This document shows positions 52,510 through 64,000 of a stretch of 64,000 bases of DNA, one piece after another. The position numbers and the translations under genes were made by a program. Under the pieces are notes generated by a model, which saw only the letters and a program-made list of their open reading frames with translations, did not search any database and was not told the origin of the DNA. Within the stretch, counting starts at the first letter, position 1, and each line of letters begins with the position of its first letter. This DNA is from a virus: positions 38,558 to 102,557 of IMG/VR virus record IMGVR_UViG_3300023171_000008. One strand, given 5' to 3'.

Positions 52510-52540
52510 AAGGGGTAGTAAATTAATACTACCCCTTTTT
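52510..52540 (+). terminator. Intrinsic terminator
   Basis: AAGGGGTAGTA/TACTACCCCTT plus T-run. Confidence 0.85.
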
Positions 52541-52745: not shown

Positions 52746-53777
52746 ATGATAATAGACTTAAATAAGAATAAACAACTTATTACTAAACAAGCTATTTTAC
52801 AACATATTCAAGATATTGATATATATAGAAAGTATTTAAATCAAGAAATTAATCTTAAACAACCAATGTTATCTCCATTAATGAAAGATAATAAACCATC
52901 ATTAGGTTTCTTTATTGGTGAAAATAATGAAATATGTTTTAATGACTTTAGAATTGGTAAAGGAGATGCAATTCGTTTTGTTCAATTATTAGAAGGTATA
53001 TCTTATTTTGACGCATTAAGTAAAATAGCTGTAGATTTTAATTTAGATAAAGATTATATTTGTAAAAATATTACTAAATCTGATATTAAATCTAATACTA
53101 ATAATTATTTATCAAGAGAAGAAATATTATCTAAAGTAGGTTCATTATATCTTAATAAAAAGAAAAGAGATTGGCAAATACATGATATAGTTTATTGGTC
53201 AGATTATGGAATATCTATTGAAACATTGAAGTTTTACAATGTAGAACCATTAGATTATATATTTATCAATGATAAAATAATTAAAGCTGATAAACATTGT
53301 TATTGTTTTACTGAATATAAAGATAACAAAGAAACTTATAAGATTTATCAACCTTTTAATATTAAATACAAATGGTTAAACAGTCATAATGATTCTGTAT
53401 GGCAAGGTTGGGAACAATTACCTAATAAAGGTGATGATTTAATTATTACCAAGTCATTAAAGGATGTTATGGCTTTATATGAAGTTACAGGCTATTCTGC
53501 TGTATCTTTACAGTCAGAAGGTATATTACCTAAACATCATGTATTTAGTCAATTAGATGAACGATTTCAAACTATCTATTCATTATATGATAATGATTTT
53601 GATAAAGATGAAAACTGGGGAAAGATATTTGGAGATAAAATAGCTAGAGAATTTGGATTAATAGAAAGTTATATTCCAGATAAATATAAATGTAAAGATT
53701 TTAGTGATTTAGTAAAACAATATGGTAAAGACAAAGCTAAATATATATTAAATAGTAATGTGTTATTACCATTTTAA
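52746..53777 (+). CDS. DNA primase (TOPRIM)
   Basis: SPL.KD.KPS, ITKS.KDVM, YDND, KDFSD. Confidence 0.85.
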   Translation: MIIDLNKNKQLITKQAILQHIQDIDIYRKYLNQEINLKQPMLSPLMKDNKPSLGFFIGENNEICFNDFRIGKGDAIRFVQLLEGISYFDALSKIAVDFNLDKDYICKNITKSDIKSNTNNYLSREEILSKVGSLYLNKKKRDWQIHDIVYWSDYGISIETLKFYNVEPLDYIFINDKIIKADKHCYCFTEYKDNKETYKIYQPFNIKYKWLNSHNDSVWQGWEQLPNKGDDLIITKSLKDVMALYEVTGYSAVSLQSEGILPKHHVFSQLDERFQTIYSLYDNDFDKDENWGKIFGDKIAREFGLIESYIPDKYKCKDFSDLVKQYGKDKAKYILNSNVLLPF

Positions 53778-54001
53778 TAAATAAAATAAATGATTATAAA
53801 AAATATCACGTTTTTAACAACTTGTCATGAAAGTTTAGCAGGATGTCTTAATAAAAGAAATGAACATAAATTATTAGAAATTAAAGTTAAAATTCCTTTA
53901 GATAAAAGAGATTTGTTAAGTAATAATTATTATGATTTAACTAAATATCTTGAAATATTAACAGGATTTTTTGTTATTAAATTTTTAAAAATAAATAATA
54001 A

Positions 54002-54406
54002 ATGCATAAAAGATTAATTTCAGTATACGGAACACTCCGTTTAGGTGGTAGCAATAACTATTTACTTAAAGATAGTAAGTTTATAGGAGAATTTAAAACA
54101 GAACCTATATTTGATTTATATAGTTTAGGAGGATTTCCTGGACTTAAATTAAATGGAGATACTTCAGTTACTATGGAAGTATATGAAGTAGATGAACAAA
54201 CTGCTAAAAGAGTAGATCAATTAGAAGGTTATAAAGAAGGAGTTGAACCATATTTTTATGATAAAATTAAATTAGAAACTCCTTATGGTGAAAGTTCTGT
54301 TTATATTTACATAAATGGAGTTCAATATCATAACAAAATAAAATCAGGAGACTGGATAGATTATGTCAAGAAGTCGAAAAAGGAAACATCAGAAGTTTAC
54401 AATTAA
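54002..54406 (+). CDS. Gamma-glutamylcyclotransferase (AIG2/GGCT-like)
   Basis: VYGTLR.G..N, EVYEV, D.LEG. Confidence 0.88.
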   Translation: MHKRLISVYGTLRLGGSNNYLLKDSKFIGEFKTEPIFDLYSLGGFPGLKLNGDTSVTMEVYEVDEQTAKRVDQLEGYKEGVEPYFYDKIKLETPYGESSVYIYINGVQYHNKIKSGDWIDYVKKSKKETSEVYN

Positions 54407-55175
54407 TCATGTAAATAAAGTAGTAAAAGAAGATAAAAGAATTAACGAAAATTATAAAGAATATAAAAAAATGAATAAAGTCAAGAAAATTGGAATTGTA
54501 GGTAATTGGACAGGAGCAAATAGTTTTGGTATAACTAAACCCTATATGTTCTTTTGGAGTCATTTTGGTGAAGTATCTATTATATCTCCAATGGAAAAAC
54601 ATGTTAGAGATTTAGATTTATTAGTAATTCCAGGTGGTCCTGATGTTGATGTATTTAGATATTTACGTGAAGAAGATGATATTGATTTAAATACTGGTGC
54701 ACCATGTTATCAACGTGAACGATTTGATAAAATGTTGTTACCTAAATATATTGCTAAAGGTACTCCTATATTTGGTACTTGTAGAGGTTTGCAAACTATT
54801 GCAGTTACACTAGGTGCTAGACTTAAGCAACATATGCATCATGAAACCAATGGTGATAATAGACATGCTTTAGTACATGGCATTACATTTGACAATGTAG
54901 AAGTTGTGCCAGGATTAGAAGAAATGATTAATCATCCTGATAATAAAGATTATAAAGTTAATAGTTTACATCATCAAACTGTATTAGAAGAAACTTTACC
55001 TTTAGAAGCTACAGTATTAGCTAGACATAGTAAAGATAATGAAGTTGAAGCTATCACATATTGGCCTCATTATCCTATACATACACAACAATATCATTGT
55101 GAAGAGATTTACGATCCTTTCTCATACACATTAATTTCACATTTATTATCATTATCAGATGAAAAAGAAATATAA
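54363..55175 (+). CDS. Class I glutamine amidotransferase / C26 gamma-glutamyl hydrolase (likely start 54471)
   Basis: PGGPDV, GTCRGLQ, VNSLHHQ, QYHCE. Confidence 0.85.
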   Translation: MSRSRKRKHQKFTINHVNKVVKEDKRINENYKEYKKMNKVKKIGIVGNWTGANSFGITKPYMFFWSHFGEVSIISPMEKHVRDLDLLVIPGGPDVDVFRYLREEDDIDLNTGAPCYQRERFDKMLLPKYIAKGTPIFGTCRGLQTIAVTLGARLKQHMHHETNGDNRHALVHGITFDNVEVVPGLEEMINHPDNKDYKVNSLHHQTVLEETLPLEATVLARHSKDNEVEAITYWPHYPIHTQQYHCEEIYDPFSYTLISHLLSLSDEKEI

Positions 55176-56001
55176 TTTATTTAGACCATTTATCCTTAGT
55201 AGACATCCAAGCCATTCAATATTAAGAGCTGTTAATAAGACTTTACCATTATTACCATTTAAATCTGTAGTTAGATTAGGTTCAACCACAGTATTAGCAG
55301 ATGATAATGAAAGAGTTCAAATTAATACACCCCAATCAGTTAAAAATTCAGCATCCAAATTATTGATGAAACAATGTTTTACTAATGCTGGAGTTAAAAC
55401 TGCAAAATGGTGGACTTGGGGAGAAGGTAATATATTTTCATTAAATGGTGATGATAATATAGATATGACTTTAATTAATCATTTACCATATCCATTAGTA
55501 GCTAAATCTCTCTATGGATCAAGAGGAATTGGAAATACTAAATTTAATAATCAAGGTGAGTTAGAGAAGTGGTTAATTGGTAAAAACTTGAATAACTATA
55601 TATTTGAAGAGTTTGTAAAAATGACTCGTGAATATAGACTTCATGTAACTGACGATGGTTGTTTCTATACTTGTAGAAAGTTAGTTAAAAATGACGCACC
55701 AGAAGATACTTGGCAAAAACATGATGATGTATGTAATTGGATATTAGAAGATAATCCTTCGTTTAAAAAACCTAATAATTGGAATGATATAGTAGCTGAT
55801 TGTATTAAAGCTAAAAATGCTTTAGGATTAGATATATGTGCATTTGATGTGGCAATACAAGGTAGTAAAAATGGTGTTGAACGTGAAAATCCAGAATGGA
55901 ACATATTCGAGTCATGTTCAGCTCCTAGTTTCGGTAAGATTACTGGAGAAAAATATATTCAAGAATTAACAAAATTAATAATTAAAAAAGCAAATAATTA
56001 A
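55159..56001 (+). CDS. ATP-grasp peptide ligase
   Basis: PLVAK..GSRG.G, FEEF, EYRLHV, LD..AFDV, ESCSAPS. Confidence 0.82.
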   Translation: MKKKYNLFRPFILSRHPSHSILRAVNKTLPLLPFKSVVRLGSTTVLADDNERVQINTPQSVKNSASKLLMKQCFTNAGVKTAKWWTWGEGNIFSLNGDDNIDMTLINHLPYPLVAKSLYGSRGIGNTKFNNQGELEKWLIGKNLNNYIFEEFVKMTREYRLHVTDDGCFYTCRKLVKNDAPEDTWQKHDDVCNWILEDNPSFKKPNNWNDIVADCIKAKNALGLDICAFDVAIQGSKNGVERENPEWNIFESCSAPSFGKITGEKYIQELTKLIIKKANN

Positions 56002-56002
56002 T

Positions 56003-57214
56003 ATGTATTACGAAGATTGGTTAGATAAATTAGCAGTACAAGGATTTACAACAATAGATGAAATAGTTCATTATATAGAAGATCCAGATAAAACACCTGA
56101 AGAAATATATGAAACTATTCCTAATGAAAGTATAGATGAAAAAGCAGATTATTTATTAAGTTATTTTAGAGATAGTGAAATGCAATGGCCTGTAGAAGAA
56201 TCTAAAGTTGTTGAAAAACAAAAATTAAGACTTGTTATTGCAGATAATAGTAGTTCTAAAGAATATGTAAACTTTTTATCTGAAATATACGATGTAACTG
56301 TGGTTAAACATGGTGATGAAGCAGATTTAGTATTATTTACTGGTGGAGAAGATGTATATCCTAAATATTATGCTGAAAATACTGGTAAATTTACTTCATA
56401 TAATGAACGTAGAGATAAGTTAGAACAAAACGTTTATAGTATGTATCGATATACACCTAAGCTTGGAATATGTCGTGGAAATCAATTCTTAGCAGTAATG
56501 AAAGGTGGTAAATTAATACAACATGTTAGTGGTCATGGTCAATCACATTATATTACTACTAATAGTGGTATGAACATCGAAGTAACTTCTACACATCATC
56601 AGATGGTTTATCCTTTTGATTTACCTCAAGATAGATACGAATTAATTGGTTGGTCTAAAAACTTTAGAAGTGGTACATATCTTAATGGAAATAATGAAGA
56701 AATTGATTTACATCGAGATTTCTTAGAAGTTGAAATTATTAAATGGGGTAATGATGCATTAGGTATTCAAGGACATCCAGAATATAGTTCAGCTTCACCA
56801 CAGTTTAAGAAATACGCTTTACAACTTATTCAAAAGTTAATTGGAGAATATGGTGAAAAGTCTCTTTCAAGTAAGTATACTACTAGATCAATCCAAGCAC
56901 CAAAATCTTTAGGTTGGTATGATAATATGGGTGTTCAGATTAAAGACAGTGGTTTACGTTTTATTGATACTCCAACATACGGACAAGATTTCTATTCAAC
57001 TAAAGGTAGTATAGAAGCCTTATCTGGCAAACAACCCAATATTCAAATGAAAGAAGAAGTTGGATTTGATGTAAATCAATTTAATAACTTCTATAAACAA
57101 GAATTAGAAAAACAAATCATTGAATCAAAAGAAAATTCTCTTCCCACTTATAATGCTTTTAATATAGAAAATTTGGAAAATGTATTAAATGATTTATCAA
57201 AAAATAAAAAATAA
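56003..57214 (+). CDS. Second class I GATase/C26 domain protein with N- and C-terminal extensions
   Basis: FTGGEDV, GICRG.Q, STHHQ, QGHPE. Confidence 0.85.
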   Translation: MYYEDWLDKLAVQGFTTIDEIVHYIEDPDKTPEEIYETIPNESIDEKADYLLSYFRDSEMQWPVEESKVVEKQKLRLVIADNSSSKEYVNFLSEIYDVTVVKHGDEADLVLFTGGEDVYPKYYAENTGKFTSYNERRDKLEQNVYSMYRYTPKLGICRGNQFLAVMKGGKLIQHVSGHGQSHYITTNSGMNIEVTSTHHQMVYPFDLPQDRYELIGWSKNFRSGTYLNGNNEEIDLHRDFLEVEIIKWGNDALGIQGHPEYSSASPQFKKYALQLIQKLIGEYGEKSLSSKYTTRSIQAPKSLGWYDNMGVQIKDSGLRFIDTPTYGQDFYSTKGSIEALSGKQPNIQMKEEVGFDVNQFNNFYKQELEKQIIESKENSLPTYNAFNIENLENVLNDLSKNKK

Positions 57215-57222
57215 TCAAATAA

Positions 57223-59049
57223 ATGAATAAATATAAAATAACAATAGGTTCTGATCCAGAAGTATTTATAGAAAATGAACAAGGTCAAGTAGTATCGGCA
57301 ATAGGATTAGTTCCAGGTACTAAACATGAACCACATCCAATAGACGATAAAGGTCATTTTATACAAACTGATAATATTGCATTAGAATATAATATTCCAC
57401 CATGTGATAATGAAGATGATTTTGTACATCATATACAGTTTGTTAAAGATTATTTAGAAGTTATTGCTGTTGCTAATGGTTATAAATTATCTACTAAAGC
57501 ATCTGAAGAAGTTGATTCTGTTTATTTACAAGATGATCAAGCTCGTATTTTTGGTTGTGAACCCTCACTTAATCCTTACACAAGATCAGTTAACGAGTCA
57601 CCAAATGCAAATACAAATTTAAGATGTGTTGGTAGAATATCTGCCTAGATATATAGAAATATATATCTGTAATTGGACAAAAACGGTGAATAAAAATTCA
57701 TAATTATTAGGAAATGTCATAAATTTTTCATATATTTGTATATATAAAATATAATTTATGATTGACAATTATTTTGATAAAATTGATTCTGATATTAAAG
57801 CTTATTTATTAGGCTTTTTTATTGCAGATGGTTGTATTAGCAAAAATAGTAGATGTACTAATAGTTATCGTTTTTCAATTAATATTTCTGATATAGATAG
57901 AGAAATTTTAGAAATTTATAAAAGTGAATTAATGACAAATAATAAAATTGTTACTTCACATTATAAAAAAGGAGCTATAAATAGAAAACCAGTATCATGT
58001 TTAAGATGGACTTCTGGTTATATGTTTGAAATGTTTAAAGTAAAATATAATATTAATCCTAATAAAACAAAGGATTTTAACTTTACTTTTAATTTTGAAT
58101 TAATAGATGAAGAATATTATTTTTCTTTTATAAGAGGATTTTTTGATGGAGATGGTCATATATCATATACTGACACTAATCAATTTACTTTCGCATTTTA
58201 TGCAACTTCTAAACCTTTTTTAGAACAAATTGGTAAAATATTTGAAAAAGAGTTTGATATAGAATATTTAATTAAGGGAACTATTAAAACAAATATAGAA
58301 TTATTTTGTTTAAGATTTAATTGTAACCAGAAAAGAAAATATTTTATAAAAAAATTATATGATAAATTTTACAGTAATTCTAAATTTTCTTTATTAAGAA
58401 AAAAATTAAAATTTGAAAAATATTTAAATACCGTGCTAAATTCTAATGGTAAAAAATTAGAATCAGTGTAACGCATAGGAGTTGATCCATAATTTAAGAG
58501 TCTTAGTGACTCTTTTTTTATGACTAAAATATTCCCACGAGTGTCCGACATCTGACTGTCTGCGAGATAAAAGATGAAAATATATGCTGAACTATAATGA
58601 ATGAATATAATTATAGAATCTAGGGATAAAAAGCCTTAGAGATAACAAAATTGGGACACATACATATCGGATATCCAGAAGCTAATCAAGAAACTTCTGA
58701 GAAAATTGTAAAAATGTTTGATATATTTGTAACACTTCCTGCTTTATTAATAGATAAAGATGATAGAAGACGTGAACTTTATGGAAAAGCAGGTGAATTT
58801 CGCTTCAAAGAACCTTGGGGATGTGAAGCAAGAGCTTTAAGTAACTTTTGGATACATTCTGAAGAAAATATTCGTTGGGTTTATAAACAAACTATAAAAG
58901 CTGTAGAATGTGTATTAGATGGTAATGCTGATGCATTATTTGATAAATATTCAGAACAAGTAGTTGAAGCAATTAATACTAATAATAAAGTATTAACTGA
59001 ATCATTATTATCTGAAATATTTGCTGGAGAAGAAGTATTAATAAACTAA
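57223..59049 (+). CDS. phiEco32-like COOH-NH2 ligase type 2, spliced (57223-57633 + 58654-59049; 268 aa)
   Basis: GSDPE, DN..LEYNIPP, FGCEP; splicing restores LRCVG|GHIHIG; RRELYGKAGEFR, EARALSNFW. Confidence 0.88.
57731..57738 (+). promoter_or_regulatory. Intron-internal Bacteroidota -7 promoter element
   Basis: TATATTTG about 20 nt before the endonuclease ATG; TTAG 20 nt upstream. Confidence 0.55.
57758..58471 (+). CDS. LAGLIDADG homing endonuclease (double motif)
   Basis: AYLLGFFIADG and FIRGFFDGDG. Confidence 0.9.
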   Translation: MIDNYFDKIDSDIKAYLLGFFIADGCISKNSRCTNSYRFSINISDIDREILEIYKSELMTNNKIVTSHYKKGAINRKPVSCLRWTSGYMFEMFKVKYNINPNKTKDFNFTFNFELIDEEYYFSFIRGFFDGDGHISYTDTNQFTFAFYATSKPFLEQIGKIFEKEFDIEYLIKGTIKTNIELFCLRFNCNQKRKYFIKKLYDKFYSNSKFSLLRKKLKFEKYLNTVLNSNGKKLESV

Positions 59050-59060
59050 AAAATAAATAA

Positions 59061-61001
59061 ATGATAATACTGATAGTATTAATCCTAGGTATATTACAAA
59101 TTCTATTAAATTTAATATTTAAACCTAATTATAATACATTAAATTGTGGTATATGGGGTCAAGCGAGTAATTCCACTAAAAAGATTAATGAATCTAATAT
59201 AAAAATATTAGGTTTGTTTAATGAATCTAGAGGTAAGAATTCTTGTGGTATAACTATAGATGGAGAGATTTATTATGGTTTAGATAAGGAAGCTTTATTT
59301 ACTAATTTTGCTAAGGGTAGGTCTATAAAGCCTACATTATATCCTACAGTAATTGGTCATACAAGACAGTCTAGTATAGGTGTGATTAATTCTTATAATG
59401 CACATCCATTTGGATTTGGAGAGAATAAAGATGGAGGTTATAAAATGTGTATCGTACATAATGGTACTTTATTAAATCATAAAGAATTAGCTGATAAATA
59501 TGAAGTATCTAAAGATATAGATTCTCCAAGTTTACATGTAGAGAATTTTAATGTTGTACGTACTAAAATTGATAGTGAAATACTAGGAGAAATTATATAT
59601 AAGACTGGTAATATCAAAGTATTAAGTGATTATAATGGTGCTGCCGCATTAGTATGGACTGATACAGATCATCCTAATGTAATTTATTTATGGAGTGGTA
59701 AAAGTCGTGCATGGTCAGATGATGCTGAAGATAAACAAGTTGAAGAACGTCCAATGTTTGTTTATATTGAAAGTAAGAATAATTTCTATTTTTCATCATT
59801 AGCAGAACCTTTACATGTTATTAGAAATAATAATGGTGAAATATTTCAAATAGATTATAATACTGTTTATACTGTTAAAGATGGTAATTTTAAAGAAGCT
59901 AAAAAGTTATTAGTTAGTAGAAAAGATAATTACCAAAGAGAAATTGTTAAATATACATCTTATACTGGAGGTTATAATTATGGTGATGATTGGGAAGATA
60001 GTCGGTGGCTTCAGAAGCCTAAAACTTCTGGTCAAACGGTTATTAATCTTCCTGCAGCTAAAGAAGAAGTAATTAATATATTTGACGATACTACTTTAAA
60101 AACTCAAAATGAGTATAAAGGTAAAGTTGTTAATAAAAAATTACGTTATTATAGAAATAATCATTTAATTAATGGTGTTTATACTAACATTATTAACTTT
60201 GATTTCTTTTATCTTGGAGATATTATTAAAGAAGCTAAAGCTCATTTTGGTACATTAGTTAATAAACCTTTTAATTATAGTACTGGAGAATTTGGTGATA
60301 TTGAAGATAAAGATTTATTTGAAACTCCATTTAAACATGACGCTCCTACATTATTTTATTTTGTAGAAGGTATAATGTTAAGAACAGAGCTTGATTATTT
60401 AACGGCATTAGCACCATTTAATATATTTAAAAATGGAGATAAATGGGATTATGAAAAGTTATCTCATGCATCAATGTTGCCAGTAGTAGATTTGACTTCT
60501 AAACCTTCAGATAGTAAACAAATGATATTAAAACATGGTGTAGAGTATAACGGTATTGTAACTGGATTAAACTTTGAGAAAAGATATGAAATTAGTAAAG
60601 GTAACTTAATTAAAATACTTCCATTAACGGCTGTAAACACTAATAGTGTAGTTAAATTAGCTAATAATGTTCATAGACCTATTATACTTAAAGAGTGTAT
60701 TAATTTTATCACTAATCTTGAGGAAAATATTGAAATTGAAGAAGTTGAAGAAGGTACTATTAAACAATTAGAACAAGACGATAAAGAATTCTTAGATAGT
60801 TTAAATGATAATATTGATAATATTGATTATGTAGCTGATGCAGTTGACGGTATATTAAATGATTGCTTAACTGGACCTTTAATTAAATTTCAAGATTATA
60901 AAGTTAAATTGAGTTATTATTTACCTCATGTAGAAGCTGTTAAAGCTCTTAAAGTTCTTGAAGATATGGAAAATGTAGTTGGTGAATTTATAAAAAACTA
61001 A
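59061..61001 (+). CDS. Class II (Ntn) glutamine amidotransferase with hydrophobic leader
   Basis: CGIWG at residue 29, RG..SCG, IGHTRQ, NAHPF, HNGTL, DSE. Confidence 0.85.
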   Translation: MIILIVLILGILQILLNLIFKPNYNTLNCGIWGQASNSTKKINESNIKILGLFNESRGKNSCGITIDGEIYYGLDKEALFTNFAKGRSIKPTLYPTVIGHTRQSSIGVINSYNAHPFGFGENKDGGYKMCIVHNGTLLNHKELADKYEVSKDIDSPSLHVENFNVVRTKIDSEILGEIIYKTGNIKVLSDYNGAAALVWTDTDHPNVIYLWSGKSRAWSDDAEDKQVEERPMFVYIESKNNFYFSSLAEPLHVIRNNNGEIFQIDYNTVYTVKDGNFKEAKKLLVSRKDNYQREIVKYTSYTGGYNYGDDWEDSRWLQKPKTSGQTVINLPAAKEEVINIFDDTTLKTQNEYKGKVVNKKLRYYRNNHLINGVYTNIINFDFFYLGDIIKEAKAHFGTLVNKPFNYSTGEFGDIEDKDLFETPFKHDAPTLFYFVEGIMLRTELDYLTALAPFNIFKNGDKWDYEKLSHASMLPVVDLTSKPSDSKQMILKHGVEYNGIVTGLNFEKRYEISKGNLIKILPLTAVNTNSVVKLANNVHRPIILKECINFITNLEENIEIEEVEEGTIKQLEQDDKEFLDSLNDNIDNIDYVADAVDGILNDCLTGPLIKFQDYKVKLSYYLPHVEAVKALKVLEDMENVVGEFIKN

Positions 61002-61002
61002 A

Positions 61003-63578
61003 ATGAGTAAAGAAAAAATAGTAACAACAATAAACAATGAGGAATTACCTATTACACAATGTAGAAGATTTGAAACTCTATATTATAAAATAGGTGATAT
61101 AAATGTTGAAAATTCAGGAGAATGTTATTTTGTAAGTAATAAATATTATAGATTTGAAACAGGTCAAATAGTATGGGATTATGAAAAACAACAATATGTT
61201 TTAAAAAACGATAATTTAATTAATGGTATTGTTAAACTTAATGAAAGCGATATTCAATTAGGTTACTTTACTAAAAGTGAAGATAATATACCTACTATAA
61301 CTCCTAATGGTACATATATGTCTTTAAATGAAGAAGTGTTTAAAGATAGTAAACTTTATCGTGAAAGATTATCTAATGGTCAATATTATCATATTGATTT
61401 ATTATCAGCTAAGGAATTTAATAGACTTAAAATTACAGATCAAGGATATAAACAGTCGTTACCTTATGACTCAAAGGGAATATTAGGACAATATCTTGAG
61501 AAATATAATAAGTTAGAAGTTGAACCTGGATATTATATTAATAATTATTCTAAGTTAATTGATAACTTATCATTTGGTCTTGAATTTGAAACATCTTCAG
61601 GTTTTATACCTAATAGATTATTAAATAAAGTAGGATTAATTCCACTTAGAGATGGTAGTATAACAGGTATAGAATACGTTACTGTACCTATGCAAGGTAG
61701 TAAAGGATTACAGACAGTTATTAATGCAGTAGATCTTCTTAAAAAGAGAACTGAGTATAATGATTCATGTAGTTTACATTTGCATATTGGTAATGTGCCT
61801 AGAACTAAAGAATTTATATTAGCATTTTTTAAAGTTACATGTGCATTACAAGATGAAATATTTAATATGTTTCCAATCTATAAGAAGTATAATTTTGGTG
61901 TTAAGAATAAAAACTATTCTAGACCTTATCCTACTTATGAGTTGTTATCTCAAATGGATCCTATAATTACTAGAAATAATTTAGATAGTAATTTTGATGT
62001 ATTATTTAAATACTTATCTATGGATTTAATGAACTTAAATTCTATTGGGAATGATTTAGATAATATCGAAGGACATCCTGCAGATTTACAAGGTAATCAG
62101 AAATGGAATATTAAAACACGTTGAGTAAAAATAGCGTAGCTATAAAGTAATTTATAGTAAAAAATATTGGGTGAATTCAAAGAAAGTCTTAATAAAATTT
62201 GTTTTTGTTGTAAAAATTTATTATATTTGTATATAATAATATTTATATGAAACAAGAAAAAGAATACTTAGAAGCAAATAAAAAACAATCAGTTAATTTA
62301 GTAGATTATCCTTATAAAAAAGGAGATAAAGTAGGTAATTTTATAGTAAATTCTGATAATTATGTTTATCATCATAAAAGATATCAAGTTGAATTAACTT
62401 GTGAATGTGGTAAAATAGTTTACAGAAGATTAAATAATATACTAAAATTAAAAAATATTTGGTGTTCAAAATGTAAAGGATATAATTTATATCCAGAAAG
62501 AAGAAAGTCTAGTGCATGGTTTACTAACGGTATTCACATACTTTGGTATAACGAAATAACTAGCAACTTACATAGAGGAAACAGAATAATAGATTGTAAA
62601 ATCAATATAGAAGATCTAAAAACTTTATATGACGATCAAAAAGGAATTTGTCCATATACAGGTATTTATTTAAATGTTTTAGATTTATTAAAAAAAGAAT
62701 CTAATGCTTCTATTGATAGAACAGATTCTTCAAAAGGTTATACTATGGATAATATTAAATGGGTTTATAAGCCTTTAAATATTATGAAAAATAGATATTC
62801 ATTAGAGGAATTTTTATTTGTTTGTAAAAAAGTTACAAATTTTACAGATAACTTTGAGCCAAGCTAACTAGGGATAGTTAGAAGGTGCAACGACTAGTAC
62901 ATGGAGTCTAGAACAGACAGTAAAGTACCACGAGCGCCCAACATCCTTGCGAAGGATGATGACATAGTCTGAACTATATAGAAATATATAGAAGATAGGA
63001 TAAAGAGCCTATCGATAACAAAATTGTATTATCATAATAACTTAATTCCGTTAATCTTTTGTAATAAAGCAACTATTGAATTCAGAGTACATACTTCTAC
63101 ATTTGATGTTAATAAGATTATTCCGTTTATATTTCTTAATTCATTTTTAATTAACTATACTATTCACAATCAAGAAGAAATATTAGCTAATCCTAAATTC
63201 TTAATTAAAAAAACTTTACAACATGTTATTGGTCATTGTACTAATGTAAATGATAACATTAAAGATCTAGGCTTATTAAGAGATTGTTTAAATATGTATG
63301 TTAACGAAAGAACTGTTTTTACTAGAAGTCAAAATGCTAATGGTAAGATAATGGGTGAAGAACATTTAATACCCTCATGTAGTTCTTACATTAACTGGAA
63401 TACTAAAGATCTTAAACCTAAAGCTTATGGTTTAGACGCTGATTTACAAGCTTATATTCAGAGAACAAAAGCTCAAATGAATTATGATCCCACAGTTAAT
63501 GTTAAAAAACCTGCAATGAAAGCTAAACCACAACCTAAACAACAGAATATTAATGCTGAAGATCATTTACCATGGTAA
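61003..63578 (+). CDS. Amidoligase (COOH-NH2 ligase superfamily), spliced (61003-62121 + 63027-63578; 556 aa)
   Basis: FGLEFE, DGSI, EYVT, SCSLHLHIG; splicing restores R|YYHNN...TIEFR.H. Confidence 0.85.
62198..62229 (+). promoter_or_regulatory. Intron-internal Bacteroidota promoter
   Basis: TTTG-N20-TATATTTG upstream of the HNH ORF. Confidence 0.65.
62247..62867 (+). CDS. HNH-type homing endonuclease
   Basis: CECG/CSKC N-terminus; CPYTG, SIDRTDSSKGY..DNI.WV...N.MK. Confidence 0.85.
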   Translation: MKQEKEYLEANKKQSVNLVDYPYKKGDKVGNFIVNSDNYVYHHKRYQVELTCECGKIVYRRLNNILKLKNIWCSKCKGYNLYPERRKSSAWFTNGIHILWYNEITSNLHRGNRIIDCKINIEDLKTLYDDQKGICPYTGIYLNVLDLLKKESNASIDRTDSSKGYTMDNIKWVYKPLNIMKNRYSLEEFLFVCKKVTNFTDNFEPS

Positions 63579-64000
63579 TTAAACATAAAGTAGAAGTTCA
63601 AACATTTGAAGATGAATTAAGTTGTAATTATGAAGACTTATTAGGTGAAAGCTGGTGTAAAGTTGACGATATAAAAACTTTACTTAAAAGTGATTATATG
63701 ACTCATTTAATGCATTATATAAATCAGCGTAGATTAAAGGATACTTGTACATATCCTAAAGAGCGTAGAGATATGTTTGCTGCATTTAGAGAAATAGAAT
63801 TTGATAAAGTTAAAGTAGTCATATTTAATGACTTTCCTAATGATGGTCATACAGCTAATGGTATAGGATTTGGTGAATATAAAAAACCAACTGCTTACAA
63901 TAGTATGTTAAAGACTGTTGAAGGATTAATTAATCAAATGCCTATTAGTGAAAGAAATGAGGAATTCGATTATACATTAAGTAGTTGGTGAACAAGGTGT
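63572..64000 (+). CDS. Uracil-DNA glycosylase-like protein, apparently frameshifted near 63989 and truncated by the window end
   Basis: LGESW, YP....F.AF, VKVVIFNDFP, ANGIGFG, DYTLSSW; EQGV continues in a shifted frame. Confidence 0.7.

Follow-up and report, generated by a model that had tools for sequence, protein, structure and literature searches.

A crAss-like phage copy of the phiEco32-type amidoligase cassette with two predicted group I-like introns

An amidoligase cassette in the primase-UDG slot

The stretch of viral DNA analysed here (hereafter the window) comprises 64,000 nucleotides (nt) of the IMG/VR record IMGVR_UViG_3300023171_000008 and holds, at 54002-63578 on the plus strand, a cassette of contiguous or overlapping open reading frames (ORFs) flanked by a primase gene and a gene resembling that of uracil-DNA glycosylase (UDG). 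Seven enzyme genes make up the cassette: a GGACT/AIG2-like gamma-glutamyl(amine) cyclotransferase, two Peptidase_C26/class I glutamine amidotransferase (GATase) paralogues termed C26a and C26b, a RimK-like ATP-grasp ligase, a COOH-NH2 ligase type 2, an N-terminal nucleophile (Ntn) class II GATase and an Amidoligase_2 protein (Table 1). An earlier reading of the sequence alone (the original prediction) had named these families, and profile matches in Pfam, PHROG and NCBIfam uphold them. Its count of seven genes stands for the enzymes and their strand, but the span contains 11 ORFs, because predicted introns with homing-endonuclease ORFs interrupt two of the genes, giving two split genes and two endonucleases. 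The locus is almost certainly a crAss-like (Crassvirales, Asinivirinae-like) version of the amidoligase cassette of phiEco32/LUZ24/RIO-1-type phages, a kinship the original prediction had also proposed, and forms one accessory module between primase and UDG. Judged by its sequence, it is a lineage-expanded copy of this well-known cassette and is predicted to be intact after splicing.

Table 1. Features of the cassette and its flanks (window coordinates)
Feature	Coordinates	Strand	Basis or remark
Intrinsic-terminator-like hairpin	52510..52537	+	ahead of primase operon
DnaG-type primase, left flank	52746..53777	+	phrog_12622 E 1.6e-66
Orphan 75-residue ORF	53790..54017	+	position where relatives carry a second, degenerate GGCT paralogue
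GGACT/AIG2-like gamma-glutamyl(amine) cyclotransferase	54002..54406	+	PF06094 E 2e-16; phrog_2520 E 4e-26
Peptidase_C26/class I GATase paralogue a (C26a)	54363..55175	+	PF07722 E 3e-24; GATase E 4e-11
RimK-like ATP-grasp ligase	55159..56001	+	phrog_2599 E 2.5e-23; TIGR00768 (RimK family) E 2e-9, below cut-off
Peptidase_C26/class I GATase paralogue b (C26b)	56003..57214	+	PF07722 E 8.5e-16; phrog_7218 E 9e-30
COOH-NH2 ligase type 2, exon 1	57223..57633	+	137 codons, ends RCVG; phrog_3815 positions 1-138
Group I-like intron 1 (predicted)	57634..58653	+	1020 nt; inside COOH-NH2 ligase
LAGLIDADG homing endonuclease ORF in intron 1	57758..58471	+	PF14528 E 1.5e-16; phrog_4645 E 5e-32
COOH-NH2 ligase type 2, exon 2	58654..59049	+	begins GHIHIG; PF14395 E 1.7e-7; phrog_3815 positions 139-261
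Ntn class II glutamine amidotransferase-like	59061..61001	+	PF13522 (GATase_6) E 6.5e-10
Amidoligase_2, exon 1	61003..62121	+	373 codons, ends KWNIKTR; PF12224; phrog_2443 E 1.5e-28
Group I-like intron 2 (predicted)	62122..63026	+	905 nt; inside Amidoligase_2
HNH homing endonuclease ORF in intron 2	62247..62867	+	phrog_3322 E 1.8e-17; phrog_3118 E 8e-11
Amidoligase_2, exon 2	63027..63578	+	begins YYHNNLIPLIF; alignment with phi14:2 g041 and cr108_1 homologue; tblastn
UDG-like gene, right flank	63572..63991	+	synteny with phi14:2 and cr108_1 UDG

In 13 IMG/VR contigs the full seven-family set fills the primase-UDG slot, the order of C26a and the ATP-grasp gene being sometimes swapped, and their proteins range from about 40% (class II GATase and COOH-NH2 ligase) to 73% (ATP-grasp) identity to those of the window. 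The same slot of cr108_1 holds ATP-grasp, C26 GATase, COOH-NH2 ligase, class II GATase and amidoligase genes. Outside Crassvirales, the core set was found in Kuravirus IMEP8, Pseudomonas phage O4 and Leptolyngbya phage Lbo-JY46, the IMEP8 and O4 cassettes showing no introns, and tblastn matches to the COOH-NH2 ligase were obtained in at least 307 phage records. The original prediction had made the pathway depend on co-inheritance across phages, and the genes do travel together in the 13 IMG/VR loci, phi14:2, cr108_1, IMEP8, O4 and Lbo-JY46. The cassette of the cyanophage Lbo-JY46 (L009:654-9467) has eight genes, encoding PRPP synthetase, an SNO-type GATase, GGCT, COOH-NH2 ligase, C26, a long ATP-grasp protein, class II GATase and amidoligase; a crAss-type primase, 26% identical, lies elsewhere in that genome.

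Cellulophaga phage phi14:2 (NC_021806; Steigviridae, Asinivirinae) offers the closest comparison among isolates. Its genes g037-g041 fill the same primase-UDG slot in the order GGCT, ATP-grasp, COOH-NH2 ligase, class II GATase, amidoligase and encode proteins 28-49% identical to those of the window, including a class II GATase that also has an N-terminal leader. However, phi14:2 has neither C26/class I GATase genes nor introns, and its ATP-grasp protein keeps the ExN motif, so that the window goes beyond it by two C26 paralogues, two intron-borne endonucleases and an Asn-to-Cys change. The phiEco32/LUZ24/RIO-1-type cassette shares the COOH-NH2 ligase type 2, Amidoligase_2, class II GATase and ATP-grasp genes, usually GGCT and often a class I GATase, and is likewise co-directional and placed in an early or replication region. 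In contrast, its carriers are unrelated podoviruses of Proteobacteria in which the gene order differs and extra genes of no known function are interspersed, and the GATase Cys is mostly residue 2, without the 28-residue leader of the window protein. The founding analysis of the phage amidoligase cassette is reportedly that of Iyer et al. in 2009 (Mol Biosyst). The cassette type has been known since then and its phi14:2 core is annotated in the same slot; new here are the duplicated C26 genes, the introns, the Cys variant and the finding of an E1-like/JAB cassette in the same slot of PhiCrAss001.

That the carrier is a crAss-like Bacteroidota phage, as first proposed, agrees with its major capsid protein, which shares 60% identity with that of phi14:2 and about 47% with those of gut crAss-like phages, and with replication genes syntenic with those of phi14:2 and cr108_1; it is a crAss-like phage (Crassvirales, Asinivirinae-like) whose nearest isolate is phi14:2. 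The window primase is 44-58% identical to the cassette-adjoining primases of relatives (tblastn). A terminator-like hairpin precedes the primase operon and the next such site on the plus strand falls inside intron 1; since none lies between the hairpin and the introns, primase and cassette are probably transcribed together as one unit. On the other flank, the identity of the UDG-like gene (63572-63991) comes from synteny together with a weak tblastn match to the cr108_1 UDG (E 3e-6). The virus record is 102,557 bp long, its end is also the window end and falls within the UDG-like ORF (63572-64000), and the record is probably a circularly permuted genome cut inside that gene. Elsewhere in the window, a GroEL-like chaperonin gene (22313-23818, minus strand; phrog_5725 E 3e-112) adjoins the large terminase gene, and PADLOC gave no defence-family match.

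Predicted introns in the two GS/GCS-type ligase genes

The two split genes are those of the GS/GCS-type ligases, the COOH-NH2 ligase being called as ORFs 57223-57648 and 58651-59049 and the Amidoligase_2 gene as 61003-62124 and 63024-63578. On the two halves of the COOH-NH2 ligase, phrog_3815 matches at E 4e-34 and 5e-35, spanning positions 1-261 of 268, and PF14395 reaches 31.2 bits on exon 2 (cut-off 25). The Amidoligase_2 protein reaches 23.8 bits with PF12224 (cut-off 22) and is homologous to phi14:2 g041, annotated 'amidoligase enzyme'. Exon junctions were placed by alignment with the uninterrupted phi14:2 and cr108_1 genes and by tblastn against 13 related viral contigs, and lie at 57633/57634 and 58653/58654 in the first gene and at 62121/62122 and 63026/63027 in the second, the 5' exon ending in U and the intron in G. 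The ligase junction (residue 137 to exon 2 residue 1) is uninterrupted in the intron-less L003-L006, L011-L014 and L016, and the amidoligase junction in L001-L004, L011, L012 and L015-L018. Because the halves are contiguous in these homologues, with no codon missing or extra and both joins in frame, the junctions are fixed to the codon, and the predicted spliced products are 268 residues (COOH-NH2 ligase) and 556 residues (Amidoligase_2) long. The need for splicing expected in the original prediction is thus borne out, as far as sequence can tell, by homologues that join both ligase halves.

Several features suggest that both insertions are group I-like introns. They share their 3' end GATAACAAAATTG and several core blocks. 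In intron 1, P2 can be placed at 57647-57668 with a GAAA loop, P3 at 57673-57679/58542-58548 and P7 at 58473-58477/58583-58587, and in intron 2 an R-like element GACTA (62892-62896) pairs with an S-like TAGTC (62965-62969). RNAalifold on four introns predicted a GNRA-capped P2, P3, P8 and P9, without resolved P4-P6, and the reading of the core as a whole drew on four to six sequences. A putative P7 helix, which crosses P3, was read by eye and contains two compensatory pairs between intron 1 (GCAUA/UAUGC) and intron 2 (GACUA/UAGUC). The U/G ends and, as predicted, the R/S-like elements of P7 and the P3/P7 pseudoknot layout are features in common with the T4 td, nrdB and sunY introns (subgroup IA2) and with introns reported from crAss-like phages; phage group I introns are also alike in the predicted GNRA-capped P2, the LAGLIDADG or HNH ORFs, the location at most-conserved codons and the existence of intron-less alleles in relatives. 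Unlike typical phage group I introns, however, they escape the Rfam model Intron_gpI (RF00028), which matched nothing in the window, in its sub-regions or in an ORF-less copy from the related locus L017, whether at the gathering score or with E allowed up to 10. This miss lowers the claim to group I membership and not the intron reading, as the introns are very AT-rich with long inserts. The label "group I-like" rather than group I was chosen because of the missing Rfam match and the absence of P4-P6 from the predicted core.

Related introns are found at other positions of the cassette in relatives. The ORF-less copy, of 438 nt, occupies the window's own ligase site in L017 (5294-5731). Others lie in C26a of L014 (8562-9598), where the tblastn match breaks at about residues 138-140 beside the catalytic Cys, after GICRG of C26b in L018 (11340-12343), and between FGC and EP of the COOH-NH2 ligase in L015 (12163-13224), the last containing a 57% identical copy of the intron 1 LAGLIDADG ORF. 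Blocks common to this intron family are CCCACGAGyGyCC, GTCTGAACT, TAGGATAAAGAGCC and GATAACA..., and their distribution indicates that one group I-like intron family has colonised several conserved cassette sites in relatives.

The intron endonucleases may be transcribed from a promoter of their own, as suggested by the fact that both ORFs are preceded by the same TTATATTTGTATATA block (57718-57757 and 62208-62246) bearing a TAnnTTTG motif, which resembles the Bacteroidota -7 promoter box. A single copy of the complete TTTG-N17-21-TAnnTTTG pattern was found in the window (62198-62229), no more than chance would give. An HNH-like ORF fragment, 43% identical to the intron HNH protein of the window and apparently free-standing, lies between two GGCT genes in L011 (8668-8835).

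Enzyme families and the chemistry they may perform

The enzyme families are best accommodated by a cytoplasmic pathway that would assemble an amide-linked small molecule or short peptide, with glutamate serving as a gamma-linked building block or as a removable handle. This pathway is proposed tentatively, with a confidence slightly short of even, while the best explanation of the locus as a whole, which combines the Crassvirales cassette copy with such a pathway, is given an even chance. In the proposed sequence of events, the two group I-like introns would splice out and restore the COOH-NH2 ligase and Amidoligase_2. These two GS/GCS-superfamily ligases would activate a carboxylate with ATP, most likely the gamma-carboxyl of Glu, and join it to an amine, after which the RimK-like ATP-grasp ligase would couple another amino acid to a free carboxylate. 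The Ntn class II GATase would shed its 28-residue leader, exposing Cys29, and would either feed Gln-derived ammonia to the adjoining amidoligase or cleave a gamma-glutamyl amide in the manner of EgtC. Finally, the two C26 hydrolases and GGACT would remove gamma-glutamyl groups (GGACT as 5-oxoproline), maturing or recycling the product.

A small-molecule pathway is favoured because the relatives with known chemistry (C26, GGACT and EgtC-like Ntn proteins) are small-molecule enzymes, and because established pathways pair a Glu-attaching ligase with the same classes of remover. Such gamma-glutamyl handle pairs are EgtA/EgtC (ergothioneine), BtrJ/BtrG (butirosin), PuuA/PuuD (putrescine) and Cj1418-Cj1417 (Campylobacter MeOPN), in which Glu is put on by a ligase of GS/GCS-like or ATP-grasp type and taken off again by an enzyme of the Ntn, C26 or GGCT type. 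However, the phage proteins are not members of those families and none of the other enzymes of those pathways is present. The original prediction had proposed, in very broad terms, a reversible glutamyl or peptide modification of host proteins, peptidoglycan, nucleotides or a small-molecule signal. Four alternatives were weighed and are taken up below with the enzymes that bear on them; in descending order of probability they are protein tagging, modification of peptidoglycan precursors, re-routing of nitrogen and polyamines, and modification of nucleotides or DNA.

Among the predicted removers, GGACT keeps, in the motif alignment, both YGTLR and LEGY (Glu75, the catalytic-Glu motif), and GGACT enzymes act on small molecules. 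A second GGCT paralogue, in which neither the YGxL motif nor the catalytic Glu survives, is found in relatives (L010:8022-8399, L013:8334-8732, L016:8038-8430), and the sole GGCT copy of L017 (1737-2117) is degenerate too. The second paralogue is absent from the window, where the orphan 75-residue ORF (53790-54017) stands instead; this ORF has no family match and no tblastn match in any related locus, and was rejected as a remnant of the paralogue, as the two show no similarity.

The two proteins first described as class I GATases do belong to that superfamily, but both score best with Peptidase_C26, which suggests gamma-glutamyl hydrolases rather than amidotransferases. The triad of C26a comprises Cys140 (GTCRG), His245 and Glu247 (HCE), and its true start may be Met37. 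The HCE noted in place of HPE in the original prediction is indeed present, but it merely reflects a variable middle residue, the triad being kept in 10 relatives with P, V or C at that position (HPE, HVE, HCE). C26b has the triad Cys157 (GICRG), His258 and Glu260 (HPE), and N-terminal and C-terminal extensions that a conservation profile finds not conserved in relatives. Among named proteins, both lie nearest to gamma-glutamyl hydrolases that act on small molecules, namely the gamma-glutamyl-CDP-amidate hydrolase and PuuD, with a SpuA-like match in the PDB, all below family cut-offs: NF045546 gives 30.7 and 36.2 bits against a cut-off of 250, and NF008471 29.3 and 17.3 bits against 266. Kinship to these equivalogs is therefore at the superfamily level only.

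Enzymes of this kind also lend themselves to a simpler scheme, in which host glutamine, glutamate, glutathione or polyamine pools would be re-routed for replication with no dedicated new product. Polyamine and glutathione turnover employs enzymes of these types (PuuD-like C26 proteins, GS-like ligases and GGACT), and several marine phage papers call cassette genes auxiliary metabolic genes. However, the joint conservation of three distinct ligases in phage families that are unrelated speaks for a synthesis in several ordered steps, and none of the proteins is close to a host housekeeping enzyme, all NCBIfam scores lying well short of the cut-offs, which makes pool re-routing improbable. Alternatively, the ligases might load a base or a nucleotide precursor with an amine or amino acid, which would fit the position of the cassette inside the replication module, adjoining UDG, and the PRPP synthetase gene that the Lbo-JY46 cassette adjoins. 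When the unassigned extensions were scanned against Pfam at E up to 10, the C26b tail gave a weak match to the helical domain of 5-hmdU DNA kinase (HMUDK_hel, E 0.016, below cut-off). This assignment was rejected, as the tail is not conserved in relatives, and scans of the largest and the cassette-adjacent ORFs (not every ORF of the window) found no hydroxymethylase, DNA kinase or base-transferase gene; such hypermodification is very improbable.

The class II GATase, to which the small-molecule pathway assigns either ammonia supply or gamma-glutamyl cleavage, consists of a 28-residue hydrophobic leader, an Ntn domain (29-295), a beta-rich domain (about 340-525) and a helical hairpin (540-645). 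Homologues of nearly its full length number 352, many of them on contigs about 100 kb long; another GATase (P0002) is 86% identical, and Cys29, Arg102, Asn134, Gly135 and Asp171 are invariant in 60 homologues. In an AlphaFold model (pLDDT 83.5), only the Ntn domain gave matches, to PurF, GlmS, TsnB9 and EgtC with Z 20-23 (EgtC 20.2). Beyond that domain, neither profiles nor Foldseek nor VIA-align recognised an acceptor domain of the PRTase, SIS or AsnB type, and this supports a small-molecule substrate. The C-terminal half (window 60066-60998), conserved in relatives, reached pLDDT 69 when folded separately and has no convincing PDB match (Foldseek E > 0.1 to choline-binding/CROP repeats), and the helical hairpin gave just generic helical-hairpin matches (VIA Z < 8). 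The hydrophobic helix before Cys29 (window 59061-59144) is conserved in crAss-type homologues, according to the consensus of 60, whereas most other phage homologues start Met-Cys, position 2 of the phrog profile aligning to residue 29. The leader is either a propeptide or a membrane anchor.

A possible membrane tether is one of the points in favour of cell-wall remodelling, the hypothesis of Hardies 2013 and Duhaime 2017, in which stem peptides of peptidoglycan precursors would be altered by gamma-glutamyl linkage, amidation or extra residues, blocking superinfection or tuning lysis. The chemistry of the families fits that of stem peptides, and the genes have been called a 'peptidoglycan modification cassette' in PSA-HP1, RIO-1, phiEco32, 7-11, PA11, tf, MR299-2, LUZ24, PaP3 and CW02 (PMC5498523). 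However, the cassette lies in a replication operon and not among lysis genes, and family scans, with no dedicated signal-peptide predictor run, detected no export signal and no Mur-ligase, transpeptidase or flippase-like gene among the cassette genes. Poseidoniales archaea lack peptidoglycan. Amidoligase and GATase genes are also reported from viruses of these archaea (PMC11706807), and remodelling of the wall appears, on balance, quite unlikely.

The ATP-grasp ligase, which would extend the product in the small-molecule pathway, has no Pfam match and replaces the ExN metal-binding motif by E251-S-C253 (ESCSAP), an Asn-to-Cys change that the original prediction had picked out. Cys is found in the window phage and in every one of its nine relatives of about 70% identity, which together form a 10-member subclade, whereas Asn is kept in phi14:2, cr108_1, O4, IMEP8, Lbo-JY46 and L003-L006. 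Since all nine close relatives share it, the change is, on this comparison, fixed in the lineage and is not a sequence error.

Possible protein tagging and the E1-like/JAB cassette of the same slot

The match of the ATP-grasp ligase to the RimK family is also the starting point for protein tagging, in which the ligases would tag a host or phage protein with Glu or a short peptide, much as RimK modifies ribosomal protein S6, and the C26, GGACT and Ntn enzymes would strip the tag off again, the result being a reversible post-translational switch that operates in takeover or replication. Three ligases together with hydrolases fit such a writer/eraser layout, and peptide tagging has been proposed for linked ligases of this kind by Aravind and co-workers (PMC4431377). 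Further support comes from the primase-UDG slot itself, which in PhiCrAss001 (L019:7023-12245) and cr111_1 (L020:8954-13500) holds a different five-gene cassette with ThiF and JAB-like proteins (ThiF E1-like PF00899, E 8e-16; JAB-like PF14464, E 5e-4, below cut-off). In Flavobacterium phage Fpv3 (L023:8761-13863) the primase abuts UDG and the ThiF/JAB cassette follows UDG, while two Suoliviridae phages have neither cassette. The ThiF cassette was absent from the genome of the window and from every sampled locus carrying the amidoligase cassette, in a sample of six genomes plus loci. The two cassettes could be functional alternatives, which would favour tagging, or the slot could be merely an accessory-gene hot spot. 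The size of the sample and the weak JAB match also count against tagging, as do the C26 and Ntn proteins, whose closest named relatives act on small molecules, and the failure to find a target candidate, a tag gene or a docking domain. Protein tagging is considered unlikely, although it is the least so of the four alternatives.

A more specific form of this idea, that the amidoligase cassette is a writer/eraser of a non-ubiquitin tag interchangeable with the E1-like (ThiF)/JAB cassette, is distinctly unlikely. If true, both cassettes would conjugate a small tag (Glu or a peptide in one case, a ubiquitin-like protein in the other) to the same class of host or replication target, and the Cys-for-Asn ATP-grasp and the leader-masked Ntn enzyme would be regulatory adaptations of the tag system.

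The cytoplasmic small-molecule or short-peptide pathway remains the preferred reading, and several observations weigh against it. The RimK ATP-grasp family includes protein-modifying enzymes too, and the activity of the subclade enzyme is uncertain because Cys stands where the metal-binding Asn is expected. The hydrophobic leader of the GATase could mean membrane association and not a propeptide, and the introns, whose splicing is predicted, are unrecognised by Rfam as group I. PDB sequence searches with proteins and profiles detected no solved relative of either GS-type ligase, so that their substrate specificity cannot be read. For the other cassette proteins these searches gave no more than weak matches at superfamily level, and the N-terminal 190 residues of the amidoligase gave only uninformative scores (below 0.8) in the ESM Atlas. 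All phage cassette proteins fall far below the cut-offs of specific characterised families in NCBIfam, and for this reason, together with the lack of a solved relative for the GS-type ligases, no substrate can be named. In agreement with the original prediction, which knew of no demonstrated product, the literature searched contained no experimental report of a product or target for any phage copy, and papers of 2023 and 2025 state that the function of the cassette 'remains to be explored'.

The locus is no more tractable than the culturable systems of phiEco32 in E. coli, LUZ24 in Pseudomonas and phi14:2 in Cellulophaga. What it adds is that the cassette moves as a unit within Crassvirales, where it has been expanded by two gamma-glutamyl-hydrolase-like genes, and that its most conserved codons appear to have been repeatedly colonised by one mobile intron family; its alternation with the E1-like/JAB cassette is also a cheap comparative lead on function. 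With one ligase matched in so many phage records and with hundreds of crAss-like metagenomic homologues of the GATase, the cassette is among the most widespread phage enzyme modules without a known product, and solving its function would reveal a new piece of phage-host biochemistry.

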